DNA of 64,000 nucleotides from an uncultured Actinomycetes bacterium (GCA_963728735.1 CAVSLX010000009.1:11190-75189); one strand, 5' to 3'; numbered from the stretch's first letter, positions 6,051-60,421 are shown. Made by a program: numbers and translations. Notes: generated by a model from the sequence alone, not told the origin.

Positions 6051-6142
6051 CGGAGGCGGACGGGAATCGAACCCGCCTGGGAGCTTTCGCCCCCACGTCG
6101 GTTTTGAAGACCGCGGGGCCCACCAGGAACCCTGACGCCTCC
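6051..6142 (-). tRNA. selC: tRNA-Sec (anticodon UCA)
   Basis: Minus strand GGAGGCGT...GCGGTCTTCAAAACCG...long variable arm TGGGGGC-GAAA-GCTCCCA...GCGGGTTCGATTCCCGT-CCGCCTCCG; CCA not encoded; TAGCCT -10 element just upstream. Confidence 0.95.
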
Positions 6143-37918: not shown

Positions 37919-38557
37919 CTATTCGATGAGGCGCCGGCGCAGGGCTTCGGCCACCGCCGCGGTGCGGTCCGACGCGCCGAGCTTCTCGAAGATGTGCTCG
38001 AGGTGCGTCTTGACCGTGTCCGGCGAGATGTACAGGCGCTCGGCGATGTCGCGATTCGTGTGCCCGAACGCGAGCAGCTGCAGGACCTCGATCTCGCGCG
38101 CGGTGAGCGTCTCGGCCCGCCGGTCGCGCTCCTTGGCGGTCGAGAGTTCCTCGGCCAGGGCGACGACGAGCTGAGGGTCGATCACCATGTTGCCGCCGGC
38201 GACGAGTCGCACGGTCTGGATCAGGTGCTCGGCGTCGCGGGCCTTCAAGACGTAGCCGCGCGCGCCGCTCCGCACGGCCTCGACGACGAACTGGCGGTCG
38301 TCGTACGCGGTGAGCATGATGACGCCGATCGCCGGGTTGCGGTCGCGGATCTCGCGGGCCGCTTCGAGGCCGTCCATCTCGGGCATCCGGATATCGATCA
38401 GGCAGATATCGGGCGTCGCGGCCTCGATGAGGTCGAGGAGCTCCTTCCCGTTCGAGGCCTCGCCGACGACCTCGATGCCGTCGGCCATGTCGAGGTAGCG
38501 CCGGAGCCCTTGGCGCACGAGCGAGTGATCGTCCGCGATCGCAACCTTGATCGTCAC
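37919..38557 (-). CDS. NarL/LuxR family response regulator
   Basis: IADDH, DIRMP, LTAY, GYVLK, LTAREIEVL...TVKTH. Confidence 0.95.
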   Translation of the reverse strand: MTIKVAIADDHSLVRQGLRRYLDMADGIEVVGEASNGKELLDLIEAATPDICLIDIRMPEMDGLEAAREIRDRNPAIGVIMLTAYDDRQFVVEAVRSGARGYVLKARDAEHLIQTVRLVAGGNMVIDPQLVVALAEELSTAKERDRRAETLTAREIEVLQLLAFGHTNRDIAERLYISPDTVKTHLEHIFEKLGASDRTAAVAEALRRRLIE

Positions 38558-47152: not shown

Positions 47153-48005
47153 GGTCGCTTCGGGAACCTCGAGAAGTCGGGGTCGCGCTTCTCCTTGAAG
47201 GCGTCGCGACCCTCCTGCGCCTCCTCGCTCATGTAATAGAGGAGCGTCGCGTCGCCGGCGAGGTGCTGCACCCCCGCGAGGCCGTCGACGCCGGCGTGGT
47301 AGCCGGATTTCAGCAGGCGGAGCGCGAGCGGCGAGTAGCGCGAGCATCTCCCTGCACCAGGCGACCGTCGTCTCCTCGAGCTCCTCGAGCGGCACGACCG
47401 CGTTGACGAGCCCCCAGTCGAGCGCCGTGCGCCGCGTCGTACTGGCGGCACAGGAACCAGACCTCCTTCGCGCGCTTCTCGCCGATCTGTCGGGCGAGCA
47501 AACCGATCCCGTAGCCGCCGTCGAACGAGCCGACGCGCGGGCCGGTCTGGCCGAACCGGGCATTCTCAGCCGCGATGGTGAGGTCGCAGCACAGATGGAG
47601 GACGTGGCCGCCGCCGATCGCGTAGCCGGCGACCATGGCGACGACCGGCTTCGGAAGCCGTCGGATCTGGATCTGGAGGTCGAGGACGTTCAGCCTTCCG
47701 ATGCCCTGTTCGTCGACGTACCCGTCGTCCCCGCGGATCTTCTGGTCCCCGCCGCTCGAGAAGGCCTCGGAACCTTCGCCCGTGAGGATCACCACGCCGA
47801 TCGACGGATCGTCGCGCGCGACATCGAACGCGTGGATCAGCTCACGGGTGGTTCGCGGCCTGAAGGCGTTGCGCACCTCGGGCCGCGCGATCGTGATCTT
47901 CGCGATGCCGTCGGCGGTCTCGTACCGCACGTCCTCCGCTGAGGCACTTCCGGATGCGCCCGGGCGATTGGCCTTCCAGTCGAGCGCGGGACGGATCTCC
48001 ACCAT
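47149..48005 (-). CDS. menB: 1,4-dihydroxy-2-naphthoyl-CoA synthase (apparent frameshifts near 47430 and 47340)
   Basis: [44 protein letters not shown]. Confidence 0.93.
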
Positions 48006-48059
48006 GTGACCACTGACTCCTAGAGCGCGGACTCGAACGGTTCCGCTAGCCTACCCGAC

Positions 48060-49227
48060 GTGACGATCAGCGCGGCCCCCGGAGAGCTCGTCGCGGTCGA
48101 GCTGCCGCCGGGCCCACGCTGGTTGGAGGTCGTCGACGAGCTCTGGGGGCGAGGGGTCGCGTTCCTTCCGCTCGATGTGCGGCTCACCGAGACCGAACGG
48201 CGCGCGGTCGTCGAGCGCGCCGCGCCCTCTCTCCTCGTGACCGAGGGCGAGGAGATCTGGTTCGCGAACGGCGCCCCGGTCGACGAGCGGATCGGGGCCG
48301 TCGTCGCGACCAGCGGAACGAGCGGCACCCCCAGGCTCGCCGACCTGTCTCGCCCGGCGCTCCGTGCTGCGCTCGACGCGTCGGCCGCCGCGCTCGACCT
48401 CGGGCCCCACCACGTCTGGGTCGCCTGCCTGACCCCGGCCCACGTGGGCGGGCTGCTCGTGCTCCTTCGCGGGGTCGACGCGCAACAGCCGATCGAGGTG
48501 CATCCGCGCTTCGATCCCGACCGGGTGCTGGAGTCGGCGCCGTGCTGGGTGAGCGTCGTGCCGACGATGGTTCGCCGGCTCGTCGTCGACGTCGGCGACC
48601 TGAGCGGCCTGTCCCTGCTCGTCGGCGGCGGCGCCCTCGATCCGATCCTCCGGGCCGAGGCCGAGTCCCGCGGCGCGCCGGATCGTGACCACCTACGGGC
48701 TCACCGAGACGTGCGGGGGGATCGCCTATGACGGTGTCCCGTTCGAAAGGACCCGCGCGCGCAAGGACGCCGACGGAAGGCTCGAGCTCCGCGGCCCGAC
48801 GCTGATGGACGGCTATCGCCACGATCCGCAGGCGACCGCCGACGCCTTCACCGTCGACGGCTGGCTCCGCACCGGAGACCTCGGCGAGGTCGACGACGGG
48901 ATGGTCGTCGTGCAGGGGCGCGCGGACGACGCGATCCGCTCGGGGGGTGAACGCGTGTGGCCCGACGAGGTCGAGGCGGTGCTTCGCGACCACCCCAAGG
49001 TGGCCGACACCGCCGTCGCGGGGCGTCCCGACGCCGAGTGGGGCGAACACGTCGCCGCGTGGGTGGTGCCCCGCCTCCTGGACGACCCTCCGACGCTTGA
49101 GGAGCTCCGCGATCACTGCCGAGACCGGCTGGCGGCGTTCAAGGCGCCGCGTGAGCTCTTCTTCGTGGCCGACATCCCGAGAACGTCCTCCGGGAAGATC
49201 CGCCGCAGCGCCCTCCTCGATCGCTAG
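48060..49227 (+). CDS. menE: o-succinylbenzoate-CoA ligase (frameshift near 48685)
   Basis: TSGTSGTP, HVGGL, TYGLTET, TGDLG, SGGE, PRTSSGK; leaderless TAGCCT-N7-GTG. Confidence 0.88.
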
Positions 49228-49254
49228 AAGAACTCGCGAGAAGGGAAGCACTCG

Positions 49255-49350
49255 TTGGAACCAGAACTGGTGAACCAGGGACCGTTTGGAACCAAGGAGC
49301 TGTTGAAACCGGGGGCCTGTCGGAACCAGGGGCTGTTGGGACTCAGGGCT
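49255..49350. repeat. Degenerate 17-nt-period tandem array of mini-hairpins
   Basis: Units start at 49275, 49292, 49309, 49326 (partial at 49343; shorter unit at 49261); consensus CCAGGGGC(C)TGTTGGAA. Confidence 0.75.
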
Positions 49351-49374
49351 CAAGCAGCGAAGCGATAGCCCTCA

Positions 49375-49470
49375 TAAAAGGAGAAGGCCCGAGTCAGGGA
49401 GGGGTTGACTCGGGCCTTCCGAACCCGCCGGTCACCGAGGGGGTGGTGACCGGCGTGAGAGGGTTCCGTG
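49375..49470 (-). ncRNA. Candidate 6C-like sRNA with two C-rich loops and intrinsic terminator
   Basis: 11-bp stem (49426-49455) with loop ACCCCCUC and 14-bp stem (49383-49419) with loop ACCCCUCCC, followed by UCCUUUUA on the minus strand; 5' end approximate. Confidence 0.65.
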
Positions 49471-49512
49471 GTGTCGCACCCTGGACTTCGTCGGGACCTC
49501 CGAGATGCTGCA

Positions 49513-49528
49513 TACCCGGAACCGGGTA
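49513..49528. promoter_or_regulatory. NarL-type 7-2-7 inverted repeat
   Basis: TACCCGG-AA-CCGGGTA, perfect inverted repeat 60 bp downstream of a NarL-family regulator gene. Confidence 0.65.
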
Positions 49529-49588
49529 AGTATTGGGGTGCGGCGAACGGATTTTGAGCGCACCGGACGGAGGCGCCGAGGTGGAGGG

Positions 49589-50268
49589 TCAGCCGACCTG
49601 GATCGCGCCGTGACTTCACGGCGAACGCGACCGCCTCGAGCTTCGAATGCACGCGCAGCTTGCCCAGGATGTTGCGGACGTGGGTCTGCACGGTCTGCGG
49701 GCTGATGTAGAGCTTCGAGGCGATCTCGTCGTTCCGCATGCCCTCGGCGAGCAGGGCCGAGGATCTCGCGTTCGCGATCGGTGAGGTCGTTCAGGAGCGC
49801 CATCGCGTCGCGCGTCTCCTCGCGTTCGCGGGCGACCTGGGCGAGCAGCCGCGTGAGCGTCGCGGGATCGATCAGCACCTCGCCGTCGGCGGCCGACTTC
49901 ACCGCGGCGAGGACCTCCTCGGCGGCCTCGTCCTTCGACAGGAACCCCGAGGCGCCGGCTTCGACGGCCTCGACGAGCAGCCGGTCGTCGTCGTGGGCGG
50001 TCATGATCACGACCTTCGTTGACGGCGAGGCCTCCTTGATCTTGCGCGTGGCCTCGATGCCGCTCAGCCCGCCGCCCTTGAACACGATGTCCATGAGGAC
50101 CACGTCGGGCAGATGCTCCTGCGCGATCGAGATCGCCTCGTCGGCGGTGTGGATCGGCGGCGTGACCATCGTGAGGCCGTCGTCGAGGCCCACCACCGTC
50201 GCGAGCGCGTCGGTCAAGATCTTGTGGTCGTCGCAGATGAGCAGCGACACCGGATCCTTGCTTGCCAC
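49589..50268 (-). CDS. NarL/LuxR family response regulator (apparent frameshifts near 49755 and 49612)
   Basis: ICDDH, VLMD, MTAH, GFLSK, LTDREREIL then MRNDEIASKLYISPQTVQTHVRNILGKL. Confidence 0.9.
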
Positions 50269-50270
50269 CT

Positions 50271-51725
50271 CTAGCCCTTCGCCGGCGGCCGTAGCCGCAA
50301 CCGAAGCATCGTACCCCCCTCGGCCGCTTCGTCGAGCGAGGCCTCACCTCCATGTTCGGCCAGGATGCCCCTGGAGATGAAGAGCCCGAGGCCACTTCCG
50401 GAACGGTCTTCGTAGCCCGGCGGGCGCCAACGGGCGAAGCGGCCGAAGACCTCCTCTCGACGTGCCGGCGGAACCCCGGGTCCCCGATCCGTTACCTCGA
50501 TCACGGCGAGCGGCCCGTCCTCGCGCAGCCGGACGATGATCGGCGCCTCCTCGGGTGAGAATCGAGCCGCGTTGTCGACCCCTTGACGGATCGCCTCGGC
50601 GAGCCACCGACGGTCCACCGAAGCGAGGATCGCTCCGGGCGCGTCGATCTCGATCGGATGCGAGCCGAGGCTGGCCGTCGCCACGGCCTCCCGGACGATC
50701 GGCACGAGGTCGTGCGTGCGGCGCTCGATCCCGAGCGTCCCGGCGTCGATCTTGAGGGCGAGCGACGTCTGATCGACCACGCCGAGCAGGCGGGCGGCCT
50801 CCTGCTCGATGAGACCGACGAACTCTCGCCGCTCGTCGTCACTCAGGCGGTCGTAGCTGCCGGACGTGGTCGCGGCGAGCCCTCTGATCGTCGCGACGGG
50901 ACCTCGCACTTCGTGCGCGACCATCGAGGCGATCTCGGCCCTTCCGCCCATGACCTCCTCGGCGCGATCCGTGGCCCGGCGCATGCTCGACCGTTCGAAG
51001 TGGATCGTCTGCAGCATGCCCACGAGGACGAAGCCGCCGATGCACAGCGCCATCGCGCCCCGGACCGAGACGCCGAGCGACGCGAAGATGGGCTCGGTCC
51101 CGATGAAGCTGAAGCCTGCGAGCGTGTACACGGCCGCTGCGAACGCCGCGGCCGCGAACCACGTGGTCGCGGCGGTTCGTGCCCGGATCGCCAGCCGGAG
51201 GCCCGCCGCCGCCAGGAGGATCGACACGACGATCAACCCGGGACGAACGCCGCCGAACGAGGCATCCTCGGGCCCGGCGACGAGCAAGAACAGGTCCGCG
51301 ACGAGGAGGCCGCCGATCGCGATGCCCGCGACGCGGACCGGTCGGGGCGGCGGCTTGCCGCGGCGGTCGCGCCACGGCACGACGAGCAGGAGCCCGGCCG
51401 CGAAGCCGGCGCGGGTGATCAGCGAACCGTAGGTGGCGAGGGCGCCGACCGAAAGGTCCTGGTCGAGCGCCGCGGTCGAGAGCACGGCCAGCACCAGCAG
51501 CTCGTGCGTCGCGAGGAGCGCGGCGCCCGTGCCGACGTACAGGAGCGCGGGGTCGCGCGTCCCCCGATACGCGACGACCGCGATCCCGACGCTCGCCACC
51601 AGCAGCCCGGTGGCGACCCACTCGAGCCCGCCGGGGAGTCCGAAGGACCGCAAGATGAGTGGCGAGACGGCGAGAACCACCACCAGGATCGCGAAACCGA
51701 GCCAGCGGGTACCCGCGCCCTCCAC
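50271..51725 (-). CDS. Multi-TM sensor histidine kinase (HisKA)
   Basis: About 8 TM helices, MVAHEVRGP, DNAARFS, DRGPG, GSGLGL. Confidence 0.92.
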   Translation of the reverse strand: MEGAGTRWLGFAILVVVLAVSPLILRSFGLPGGLEWVATGLLVASVGIAVVAYRGTRDPALLYVGTGAALLATHELLVLAVLSTAALDQDLSVGALATYGSLITRAGFAAGLLLVVPWRDRRGKPPPRPVRVAGIAIGGLLVADLFLLVAGPEDASFGGVRPGLIVVSILLAAAGLRLAIRARTAATTWFAAAAFAAAVYTLAGFSFIGTEPIFASLGVSVRGAMALCIGGFVLVGMLQTIHFERSSMRRATDRAEEVMGGRAEIASMVAHEVRGPVATIRGLAATTSGSYDRLSDDERREFVGLIEQEAARLLGVVDQTSLALKIDAGTLGIERRTHDLVPIVREAVATASLGSHPIEIDAPGAILASVDRRWLAEAIRQGVDNAARFSPEEAPIIVRLREDGPLAVIEVTDRGPGVPPARREEVFGRFARWRPPGYEDRSGSGLGLFISRGILAEHGGEASLDEAAEGGTMLRLRLRPPAKG

Positions 51726-59684: not shown

Positions 59685-59740
59685 GTCCCCTCCCAGGGTT
59701 CGTCGATCCGGTCCGCGGACCGGCGGTGATGGCGCCTGCG

Positions 59741-60421
59741 TCAGTCCCCGTTGGCGACCAGTGCACCCGGCACCGGCCCGACCCCCATCTGCACAGCCAT
59801 CATCGCGGCCTGTGTCCGGTTCGTGACGCCGAGCTTGCGGAAGATCGCCGCGAGGTGCGCCTTCACGGTCTTCTCCGACAAGAAGAGCTGCTGTGCGATG
59901 TCGCGGTTGGCTCGCCCTTCGGAGAGAAGCGCGAGGATGTCGTGTTCGCGTTGGGTCAGGCTGTATTCGTTCCGACGGCCTGGTCCGCTGCCCGGTCCAC
60001 CCTGCTCCTGGTCTTCGAACAGGTTCTGGATCACGCGGGGTGACAGGACGTTCCCGCTCCCGGACATGGCCACGTTGATCGCCTGTGCGAGATCCTCGGG
60101 CGTCGCGTCCTTGAGCAGGTACCCGGCCGCGCCGTCGGCGAGCGCGCGCCGCACGTATGGCGCGTTCTCGTAGGTCGACAGCATGATCACGGGCATCTCC
60201 GGCCACTCGACCTTGATCGCCCGCAACAGCTCGAGCCCATCGAGGTCGGGCATCCGAACGTCCACGAGCGCGAGGTCCGGTTTCGCGCCCTTCTTCAACA
60301 GCTCGAGCGCCGTGGTGGCGGACTCGGCCTCGACGACCTCAGCGTCCGGGAAGCCTTCCTTCACCACGTATTGCATGCCACGACGCACCAGCGCGTGGTC
60401 GTCAACGATCAGGATCTTCAT
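59741..60421 (-). CDS. NarL/LuxR family response regulator
   Basis: IVDDH, DVRMP, LSTY, GYLLK, LTQREHDIL...TVKAH. Confidence 0.95.
   Translation of the reverse strand: MKILIVDDHALVRRGMQYVVKEGFPDAEVVEAESATTALELLKKGAKPDLALVDVRMPDLDGLELLRAIKVEWPEMPVIMLSTYENAPYVRRALADGAAGYLLKDATPEDLAQAINVAMSGSGNVLSPRVIQNLFEDQEQGGPGSGPGRRNEYSLTQREHDILALLSEGRANRDIAQQLFLSEKTVKAHLAAIFRKLGVTNRTQAAMMAVQMGVGPVPGALVANGD

Follow-up and report, generated by a model that had tools for sequence, protein, structure and literature searches.

A predicted 6C-like small RNA with fixed C-rich loops, linked to a NarL-family two-component system in a family of uncultured soil Actinomycetota

Two adjacent hairpins with C-rich loops lie between convergent genes in a 64,000-nucleotide stretch of DNA from an uncultured actinobacterium (hereafter the window), and the question raised by this locus is whether they merely end transcripts or form the body of a small RNA (sRNA). 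The preliminary description, made from the sequence alone, had favoured an sRNA resembling the actinobacterial 6C RNA and had joined it to the adjacent two-component system and a G-rich array in a single circuit. The source assembly (G000) is a MAG of 36 contigs and 2.6 Mb with a completeness of 68%. The features of the locus are listed in Table 1.

Table 1. Features of the sRNA locus and its immediate neighbours (window coordinates).
Feature	Position	Strand	Basis and remarks
AMP-binding enzyme gene, menE-like, convergent	48060..49227	+	Pfam AMP-binding, AMP-binding_C; frameshifted in this assembly
Predicted sRNA transcript, ~85-105 nt	49377..49481	-	match of covariance model R1 and BLAST-conserved span; 5' end approximate
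Stem-loop 3 (hairpin 2 of the preliminary description)	49382..49420	-	14 bp, 15 bp with the closing G-U pair; loop ACCCCUCCC; compensatory changes in 7/14 pairs
Stem-loop 2 (hairpin 1 of the preliminary description)	49426..49455	-	11 bp; loop ACCCCCUC; compensatory changes in 9/10 pairs
Stem-loop 1, small 5' hairpin GGUG-CGA-CACC	49470..49480	-	RNAfold structure
Short conserved motif CGACGAAG, consensus G-N-CGA-A/C-G/A	49486..49493	-	alignments; between palindrome and stem-loop 1
Perfect palindrome TACCCGG-TT-CCGGGTA (core TACCCG-N4-CGGGTA), candidate operator	49513..49528	.	sequence
Response regulator, NarL/FixJ family (REC + GerE)	49589..50268	-	in three frames; domains from intact ortholog (L041:4437-5102)
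Membrane histidine kinase (HisKA + HATPase_c)	50271..51725	-	Pfam; immediately upstream of the regulator

Both hairpins were read in the sequence as originally described, with stems of 11 and 14 bp and C-rich loops on the minus strand. Using RNAfold, a folding energy of -66.1 kcal/mol was obtained for 49360-49480, as compared with -40.9 +/- 3.9 kcal/mol for 200 dinucleotide shuffles (z = -6.5), none of which was as stable. The predicted structure also contains stem-loop 1, whose sequence differs between genera; a hairpin was predicted at the equivalent place in homologs from other genera, and according to this model stem-loop 1 would form the 5' part of the transcript. The loops of the sRNA contain CCUCC/CCCUC, a type of sequence also present at the anti-Shine-Dalgarno end of the 16S rRNA. 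When the 2.6-Mb source assembly was scanned for C-rich loops closed by stems of 8 bp or more, 106 single hairpins were retrieved and the sRNA locus was the sole tandem pair; no second tandem C-loop hairpin pair was found in this 68% complete genome.

A structured RNA is kept at this place across many genera of a single Actinomycetota family, which consists of uncultured soil bacteria represented by MAGs only. Comparison of 49240-49620 with 201 genomes of the same GTDB family by BLAST gave matches in 127, a tally that takes in unpublished genomes and matches to a dispersed repeat; the block common to other genera spans 49377-49531, from the palindrome through the end of hairpin 2. From the BLAST matches, 39 loci were fetched, and 23 loci were collected separately by anchoring on similarity of the kinase protein alone, of which 18 were from Actinomycetota MAGs with soil-type records and 5 from other phyla. 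A first MAFFT alignment misplaced hairpin 1, with RNAalifold returning hairpin 2 only, and the alignment was re-anchored on loop 1. The alignment used here (A2) contains 41 distinct sequences and omits exact duplicates, two loci whose loop 1 lacks the anchor (L055 and L057) and the loci missed by the strict regular expression (L051-L054). In A2, 93.2% of the cells in helices are paired, as opposed to 79.9% after shuffling, and the observed covariation score was reached by none of 500 shuffles. Compensatory changes were found in 16 of the 24 base pairs, a count that overstates the number of independent events because the homologs stem from related genomes of one family. As a control, the pairing partner was slid by 1-3 columns, whereupon pairing fell to 21-51% (maximum 50.7%).

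Loop ACCCCUCCC is invariant in the 41 aligned homologs, a set ascertained in part with a pattern that required this sequence, and was likewise present in all 18 kinase-anchored Actinomycetota loci, which had been chosen independently of the RNA. Loop 1 reads (A/U/G)CCCCCUC in most homologs and is near-invariant as (A/U)CCCCCUC, with UCCCCUC, UACCCCUUUC, AUCCACUC, CCCCCCA and AUCCUCUC as minor variants. The preliminary description had named unconserved loops as one outcome that would reduce the hairpins to a bidirectional terminator; downstream of orthologous regulators, the stems were instead found to covary around fixed C-rich loops.

A covariance model built from A2 (R1) matched the source assembly at 49378-49458 with 90 bits (E = 6e-13) and identified a single copy in the genome, at which the reverse strand gave a weak echo as well. 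All 18 kinase-anchored Actinomycetota loci were matched as well (56-95 bits), on the strand of the kinase and downstream of it, and none of the 5 kinase-anchored loci from other phyla. In an order-level search with strict filters and 30 candidates scored per genome, 52 of 79 family genomes were positive, each with exactly one match, and none of 71 genomes from the seven other families of the order gave a match. Whole genera were either positive, including g10 (11/11), g19 (13/13), g21 (13/13) and g24 (5/5), or negative under these search settings, including g15 (0/7) and g20 (0/6); three of the positives (G032, G053 and G146) are unpublished genomes. Outside the family, 3 of 145 genomes from across the phylum gave weak R1 matches, none of which coincides with a 6C match, and the best of them (40.1 bits) sits within a coding region.

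The number of hairpins evolves modularly, with one to three C-rich hairpins in different genera. At the g15 loci, the sequence downstream of the regulator ortholog forms a hairpin-1-like stem-loop with loop UCCCCCUC, and hairpin 2 is missing. At two loci of genus g19 (L037 and L038, from G018 and G060), the sRNA has three hairpins with C-rich loops, among which ACCCCCUC occurs twice and ACCCCUCCC once, and the sRNA of genus g21 carries an additional small hairpin between hairpins 1 and 2.

The relationship of this RNA to described families was assessed with Rfam. At gathering thresholds, only tRNA-Sec and a tRNA were found in the whole window. With reporting by E-value on 49100-49800, the 6C model (RF01066) gave an alignment that covers all 75 of its positions and scores 45.7 bits (E about 1e-4), 1.3 bits below its gathering cut-off of 47 bits. 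The comparison with 6C and cuckoo-type families that had been recommended therefore gave alignments in both cases and a score above the cut-off in neither: with ar14 (RF02344; cut-off 58.8), the window scored 44.1 bits and relatives 32.7-42.6 bits. Scr3202 (RF02833) reached 36.5 bits in the window, with 36.4 and 30.7 bits in two relatives (cut-off 52). At E <= 0.01, the 6C model listed none of 19 relatives' loci, and at E <= 10 it listed one of seven (30.8 bits); its gathering score was reached by neither the window copy nor any relative searched. A genome search with RF01066, covering G000 and 5 near-complete relatives, returned nothing over the cut-off, and the relatives gave sub-threshold matches only; this search scored 150 of 1499 candidates in G000, also missed the known 45.7-bit site there, and matched the control C. 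glutamicum no higher than below the cut-off. A sub-threshold match in one of the 5 relatives (L096) was read and found to be unrelated.

As defined in the original account, 6C RNA comprises two hairpins with covarying stems whose loops each hold a run of at least six C (Weinberg et al. 2007, PMC1950547), and it usually lies 200-300 nt from chromosome-partition or pilus-assembly genes, which is a tendency rather than a strict criterion (PMC1950547). For M. tuberculosis 6C, three stem-loops are described, of which only L2 and L3 are conserved and C-rich, together with a chaperone-independent mechanism based on pairing of the C-rich loops with G-rich ribosome-binding sites (PMC6486639). Like 6C (RF01066; M. 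tuberculosis B11/6C, C. glutamicum cgb_03605), the RNA studied here occurs in Actinomycetota, is ~80-100 nt long and is present once per genome; its stems covary, and its two adjacent, stable hairpins with C-rich loops come after a 5' hairpin that varies. Its loops would also suit the loop-mRNA pairing known for 6C (PMC6486639). Unlike the runs of at least six C given for 6C (PMC1950547), the loops here are of the form C5-U-C and C4-U-C3, with a run of five C in ACCCCCUC and runs of four and three in ACCCCUCCC, and a run of at least six C is wanting in the aligned homologs as well. In further contrast to 6C, the scores stay under the gathering cut-off, with 30.8 bits or no report at all in relatives, and the neighbours are a NarL-type two-component system together with men/pan genes; partition or pilus genes were found nowhere within about 10 kb of the sRNA. 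The upstream palindrome also differs from the LexA operator reported for the 6C RNA of C. glutamicum (PMC5014011).

Fixed C-rich loops on variable stems and a link to a two-component system are features held in common with the alpha-r14 or 'cuckoo' sRNAs (NfeR1). These are portrayed as several hairpins with variable stems that each bear an identical ultraconserved anti-Shine-Dalgarno loop motif, and a mixed feedback loop ties NfeR1 to NtrBC, a two-component system (PMC10746234). The two g19 genomes with three C-rich loops resemble the three-hairpin layout of alpha-r14. However, the alpha-r14 sRNAs belong to a different phylum (they are alphaproteobacterial) and have three hairpins each with CCUCCUCCC, whereas the loop motif here is CCCCUCCC/CCCCCUC, and all ar14 scores obtained here lie below the gathering score of 58.8. 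Moreover, NfeR1 is not reported in that paper as encoded beside ntrBC (PMC10746234), whereas the present sRNA adjoins its two-component system. The resemblance is most likely convergent.

Because the 6C score lies below the cut-off, the relatives are barely seen by the model and no run of at least six C is present, the RNA is taken as 6C-like, probably a diverged relative or sister family of 6C and not a certified member. The original likening to 6C thus stands with regard to the full-length alignment and the covarying stems, but not with regard to the cut-off, the loop composition or the gene neighbourhood. The locus had also been put forward as the best candidate for a new system in the window. 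The results point instead to a lineage-specific, sponge-free version of a type of translational repressor that is already known, and not to a new kind of system or regulatory principle.

A NarL-family two-component system is located just upstream of the sRNA gene, and the two are inherited together. The same strand carries, from upstream to downstream, panB (Pantoate_transf), the histidine kinase, the response regulator and the sRNA; the neighbours of the sRNA comprise menD, menA, menB, menE, the regulator, the kinase, panB, rpsF and ssb, and the gene order around it is repeated in a same-genus MAG (L041). In the intact regulator ortholog of that MAG, Pfam searches identified Response_reg (75 bits) and GerE (73 bits), and in the window kinase HisKA (32.6 bits) and HATPase_c (70 bits), so that the receiver and GerE/LuxR helix-turn-helix domains of the regulator and the HisKA and HATPase_c domains of the kinase, as expected of a NarL/FixJ-type system, are all in place. 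The best NCBIfam match of the ortholog was NarL, at 143 bits and thus below the equivalog cut-off of 250, with UvrY/SirA/GacA also listed. As noted in the preliminary description, the sRNA lies directly downstream of the two-component system; this arrangement was found at all 18 kinase-anchored Actinomycetota loci, and the regulator is directly upstream at 49 of 54 loci (some of which represent the same genome fetched by two routes), with its stop codon 111-213 nt before stem-loop 3. At 14 kinase-anchored, pattern-matched loci, stem-loop 3 begins 111-151 nt past the aligned end of the regulator. At the remaining 5 of the 54 loci, all from genus g24, a distance of 3.8-4.6 kb separates the sRNA from the regulator ortholog, which is again upstream and on the same strand, and palindrome and sRNA are still found together, adjoining the menE-like gene; at the g24 locus that was read (L021), unrelated genes separate the regulator from the sRNA. 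Since g24 keeps palindrome and sRNA together with the regulator about 4 kb off, a self-contained sRNA unit is favoured. The regulators are 73-100% identical across genera, and the ortholog is also present in g15 genomes, at 73-74% identity. The sensor domain of the kinase was of no use as a marker of co-occurrence, as it diverges too fast and gave matches in only 28 of 201 family genomes. On the other side, the 3' end of the menE-like gene abuts stem-loop 3 in most relatives, in which its reverse-complemented C-terminal coding sequence starts ~15-40 nt from the hairpin. Because it sits between convergent genes, the sRNA cannot be a 5' leader.

The '7-2-7 box' noted earlier upstream of the sRNA was found at the expected place (Table 1), and its outer TACC...GGTA is kept in five genera (g1, g10, g11, g19 and g24). 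The inner positions vary between genera without compensation, a pattern more in keeping with a protein site than with an RNA hairpin. G000 contains four perfect TACCCG-N4-CGGGTA sites, all of them intergenic and one of them in front of the sRNA; on account of the three further copies, the palindrome looks like a protein operator. For 120 palindromes of the same half-site composition, a mean of 0.66 sites was counted in G000, with at least four sites in 7 of the 120. One copy of the box is situated between pilC and a type IV prepilin gene (N_methyl motif), one before a 147-aa gene without a Pfam family, whose paralog has a copy with one mismatch, and one before a probable secreted-protein gene. 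These copies suggest, at the sequence level, a small regulon of one regulator; in other family genomes, 0-2 perfect sites were counted. The box-copy sites are G000:C26:80595, C29:5929, C35:24725 and C22:20564 (loci L064-L067), and the products of the paralogous 147-aa genes begin with MRQWELIGITD, each gene being located beside hemL.

NarL/GerE-family regulators typically bind short inverted repeats, and GacA/UvrY, which are of the NarL/FixJ family, drive the sRNA genes RsmY/Z and CsrB/C through an upstream palindrome. The present locus likewise combines a regulator of this family with an sRNA gene that follows a conserved inverted repeat. It differs from these systems in that RsmY/Z and CsrB/C, whose genes do not adjoin that of the regulator, titrate a protein via GGA motifs, and in that binding of the box by the candidate regulator is here partly contradicted by the sequences. 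The recognition helix is practically invariant in 16 of 16 loci compared, yet the palindrome before the sRNA is CCTGCCCGGCAGG in g21 and CCGTTCG-TC-CGAACGG in g15; g21 genomes hold perfect TACCCG-N4-CGGGTA sites elsewhere, and a g15 genome (G014) has the regulator ortholog and no perfect box. That the neighbouring regulator binds the box is therefore possible but, on balance, doubtful.

A scan for sigma-70-type promoters found none at the sRNA, and inspection of the upstream region by eye for TANNNT, ECF-like and GGGTAT-type elements and for a -10 element gave no consistent solution. The motif CGACGAAG may be a promoter element. At the 3' end, a G+C-rich stem is present, and the U-tract reported in the preliminary description exists in the window as four U after hairpin 2 (49375-49378); it is, however, short, with ~0-4 U in relatives, and a consensus terminator scan detected no terminator-like site at the hairpins. 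Many actinobacterial terminators lack U-tracts, and stem-loop 3 probably doubles as the 3' end or terminator of the sRNA. In a metatranscriptome run (X7) that shares a few words with the stretch, contigs fall on the dispersed repeat from 49346 onward and, with <95% likeness, on portions of the regulator gene; there are none over 49403-49603, and the run speaks neither for nor against expression.

The G-rich array downstream of the sRNA had been proposed to act as a sponge for the C-rich loops. The array is present (49254-49348; 5.8 copies of the 17-nt unit GTTGGAACCAGGGACCT) and is placed between the stop codon of the menE-like gene and a 26-nt element (GGGCTCAAGCAGCGAAGCGATAGCCC, + strand, 49346-49371) that forms a 5-bp stem with a 16-nt loop. 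The element is dispersed in G000. At C12:213075-213100 it belongs to an array of related units, each 33-36 nt long, immediately before a dapA-like start, and at C7:69351-69418 the 5' end of a leuA-like gene carries two copies spaced 42 nt apart, which are in frame if translation begins at the upstream ATG; the dapA-like and leuA-like names rest on reading of the translations and not on a family search. Copies with 96-100% identity were found in many family genomes, often in tandem with periods of 33-45 nt. No Rfam family matched the element, which may be a REP/MITE-like element or a regulatory RNA motif. Array and element follow the sRNA at only one of 47 distinct loci, the window itself; at the other loci, the corresponding position shows at least 9/26 mismatches and no array. 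The G-rich array is thus an insertion of a dispersed repeat that stands outside the sRNA system, and its role as a sponge was rejected.

Taken together, these observations make it fairly probable in our view that the locus is a single-copy gene for a trans-acting sRNA of the 6C type, the loops of which would pair with G-rich ribosome-binding regions. In the proposed mechanism, a variable 5' hairpin would be followed by two stable hairpins exposing ACCCCCUC and ACCCCUCCC, with the loops held constant as the stems drift. The loops would pair with the G-rich ribosome-binding regions of several mRNAs, and pairing would lower the translation or stability of these targets without a chaperone, by analogy with what was shown for mycobacterial 6C. 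Synthesis of the sRNA, for which we infer a start close to stem-loop 1, would probably be under the control of a signal, because an operator-like palindrome precedes the gene. The targets with GGGAGGGG-type Shine-Dalgarno sequences that had been predicted, for example near 59690, could not be told from chance: the motif occurs 3 times in the window, as compared with 4.6 expected, and the 61-aa ORF that follows the site at 59687-59694 is itself dubious. Genome-wide, 6 long ORFs have GGGAGGGG and 36 have CGAGGGGG near their start, and neither number is discriminating.

In a wider reading, kinase, regulator, palindrome and sRNA would form one hard-wired signalling cassette in which the regulator binds the box and activates an anti-Shine-Dalgarno-mimic sRNA that damps G-rich leaders, that of the regulator's own ribosome-binding site included. 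We consider this quite unlikely. The ribosome-binding site of the regulator is GGAGG(G/C) in many genera and serves as a lead for feedback only, since GGAGG(G/C) is an ordinary Shine-Dalgarno sequence; the G-rich leader of the box-linked gene on contig C29 of G000 is likewise no more than a lead for a feedback or feed-forward loop. If the cassette did exist, its operator would also precede a type IV pilin gene and two paralogs without an assigned function, and the sRNA would also damp the G-rich leader of one box-controlled gene. The result would be a mixed feedback/feed-forward loop like that of NtrBC and NfeR1, yet cis-encoded and confined to one family of uncultured soil actinobacteria.

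Other explanations have to be weighed against that of a trans-acting sRNA. If the hairpins were mere terminators for the regulator operon and the convergent menE-like gene, without function as a free RNA, their site between convergent genes would be accounted for, as would the location of stem-loop 3, in most relatives directly at the 3' end of the AMP-binding gene, where a bidirectional terminator is expected; the short U-rich stretches after the hairpin in some genera and the lack of X7 RNA contigs over 49403-49603 fit this explanation, too. A terminator, however, has no need of invariant loops, which are fixed here while 16 of 24 pairs change compensatorily, and the locus has two, or in two g19 genomes three, tandem hairpins with related C-rich loops. 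In addition, ~130 nt including the conserved palindrome lie between the regulator stop codon and hairpin 1, the unit survives the insertion of 4 kb of genes behind the regulator in g24, and the terminator scan was blank at the hairpins, which leaves this explanation improbable. The RNA could instead be functional and be cut from the 3' UTR of the kinase-regulator mRNA, with no promoter of its own and a level that follows the operon. Sharing of the strand, the short distance from the regulator stop codon at 49 of 54 loci and the blank promoter scan are in line with such an origin, and 3'-UTR-derived sRNAs are an established class. It is nevertheless unlikely, given that a conserved operator-like palindrome separates the stop codon from the RNA, that the same palindrome recurs in divergent promoter regions elsewhere in the genome, and that the five g24 loci retain palindrome and sRNA at a distance from the regulator.

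Far less credible is the circuit as initially drawn, with the adjacent regulator driving the sRNA via the 7-2-7 box and the array acting as a sponge. It draws on the NarL/GerE type of the regulator, whose family typically binds short inverted repeats, on the tight linkage of regulator and sRNA and on the conservation of the box in five genera; its sponge consists of copies of a dispersed repeat and, with the 26-nt element, occurs at 1 of 47 loci, and its operator would have to be recognised by a helix that is near-invariant in 16 loci even though the palindromes of g21 and g15 differ, g21 keeps the perfect box elsewhere and G014 has the regulator without one. Equally hard to credit is a CsrB/RsmZ-like role, in which the RNA would sequester a protein recognising the C-rich loops and would not pair with mRNAs. 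Repeated invariant loop motifs on variable stems are a hallmark of protein-titrating RNAs, and a number of C-rich hairpins that varies from 1 to 3 between genera is in keeping with such a role, but the conserved neighbourhood encodes no candidate binding protein. In addition, 6C, the closest characterised relative, works by loop-mRNA pairing without a chaperone (PMC6486639).

With the locus read as a trans-acting 6C-type sRNA gene, a recognisable relative of 6C would be present in a soil lineage represented by MAGs only, with U-interrupted loops that look even more like the anti-Shine-Dalgarno sequence. To our knowledge, 6C is among the very few sRNAs of high-G+C Gram-positive bacteria with a known mechanism. 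The near-constant link to a very conserved two-component system suggests a means of sRNA control, and the control of 6C itself is still unclear. Because the Rfam model misses this sRNA at its own threshold, routine annotation will not report it; the covariance model R1 could be the starting point of a new Rfam family or be used to widen that of 6C.

Several observations concern the assembly and the wider window. Two 1-nt indels, one close to 49613 and the other close to 49756-49761, split the regulator gene. In three other DNA runs, the contigs have one base fewer at each of these places and hence lack the extra bases, for which reason the frameshifts are attributed to indels of the assembly or the strain; once the base at 49613 is taken out, the gene ends at 49589. 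At least four frameshifts fall within ~3 kb (about 47310-50268), in the menB-like gene, in the menE-like gene and twice in the regulator. As the assembly seems indel-prone, other apparent pseudogenes in G000 are to be distrusted. The 64-kb window contains two more REC + GerE regulators, at 37922-38557 (-) and 59744-60421 (-). Both panB and an rpsF-ssb cluster are found at distances of up to 4 kb from the sRNA; mycobacterial 6C targets include panD and dnaB, and the match with the panB/ssb neighbours may be a coincidence. Finally, the tRNA-Sec gene of the window (6052-6142, minus strand; 74.6 bits) implies the use of selenocysteine by this actinobacterium.
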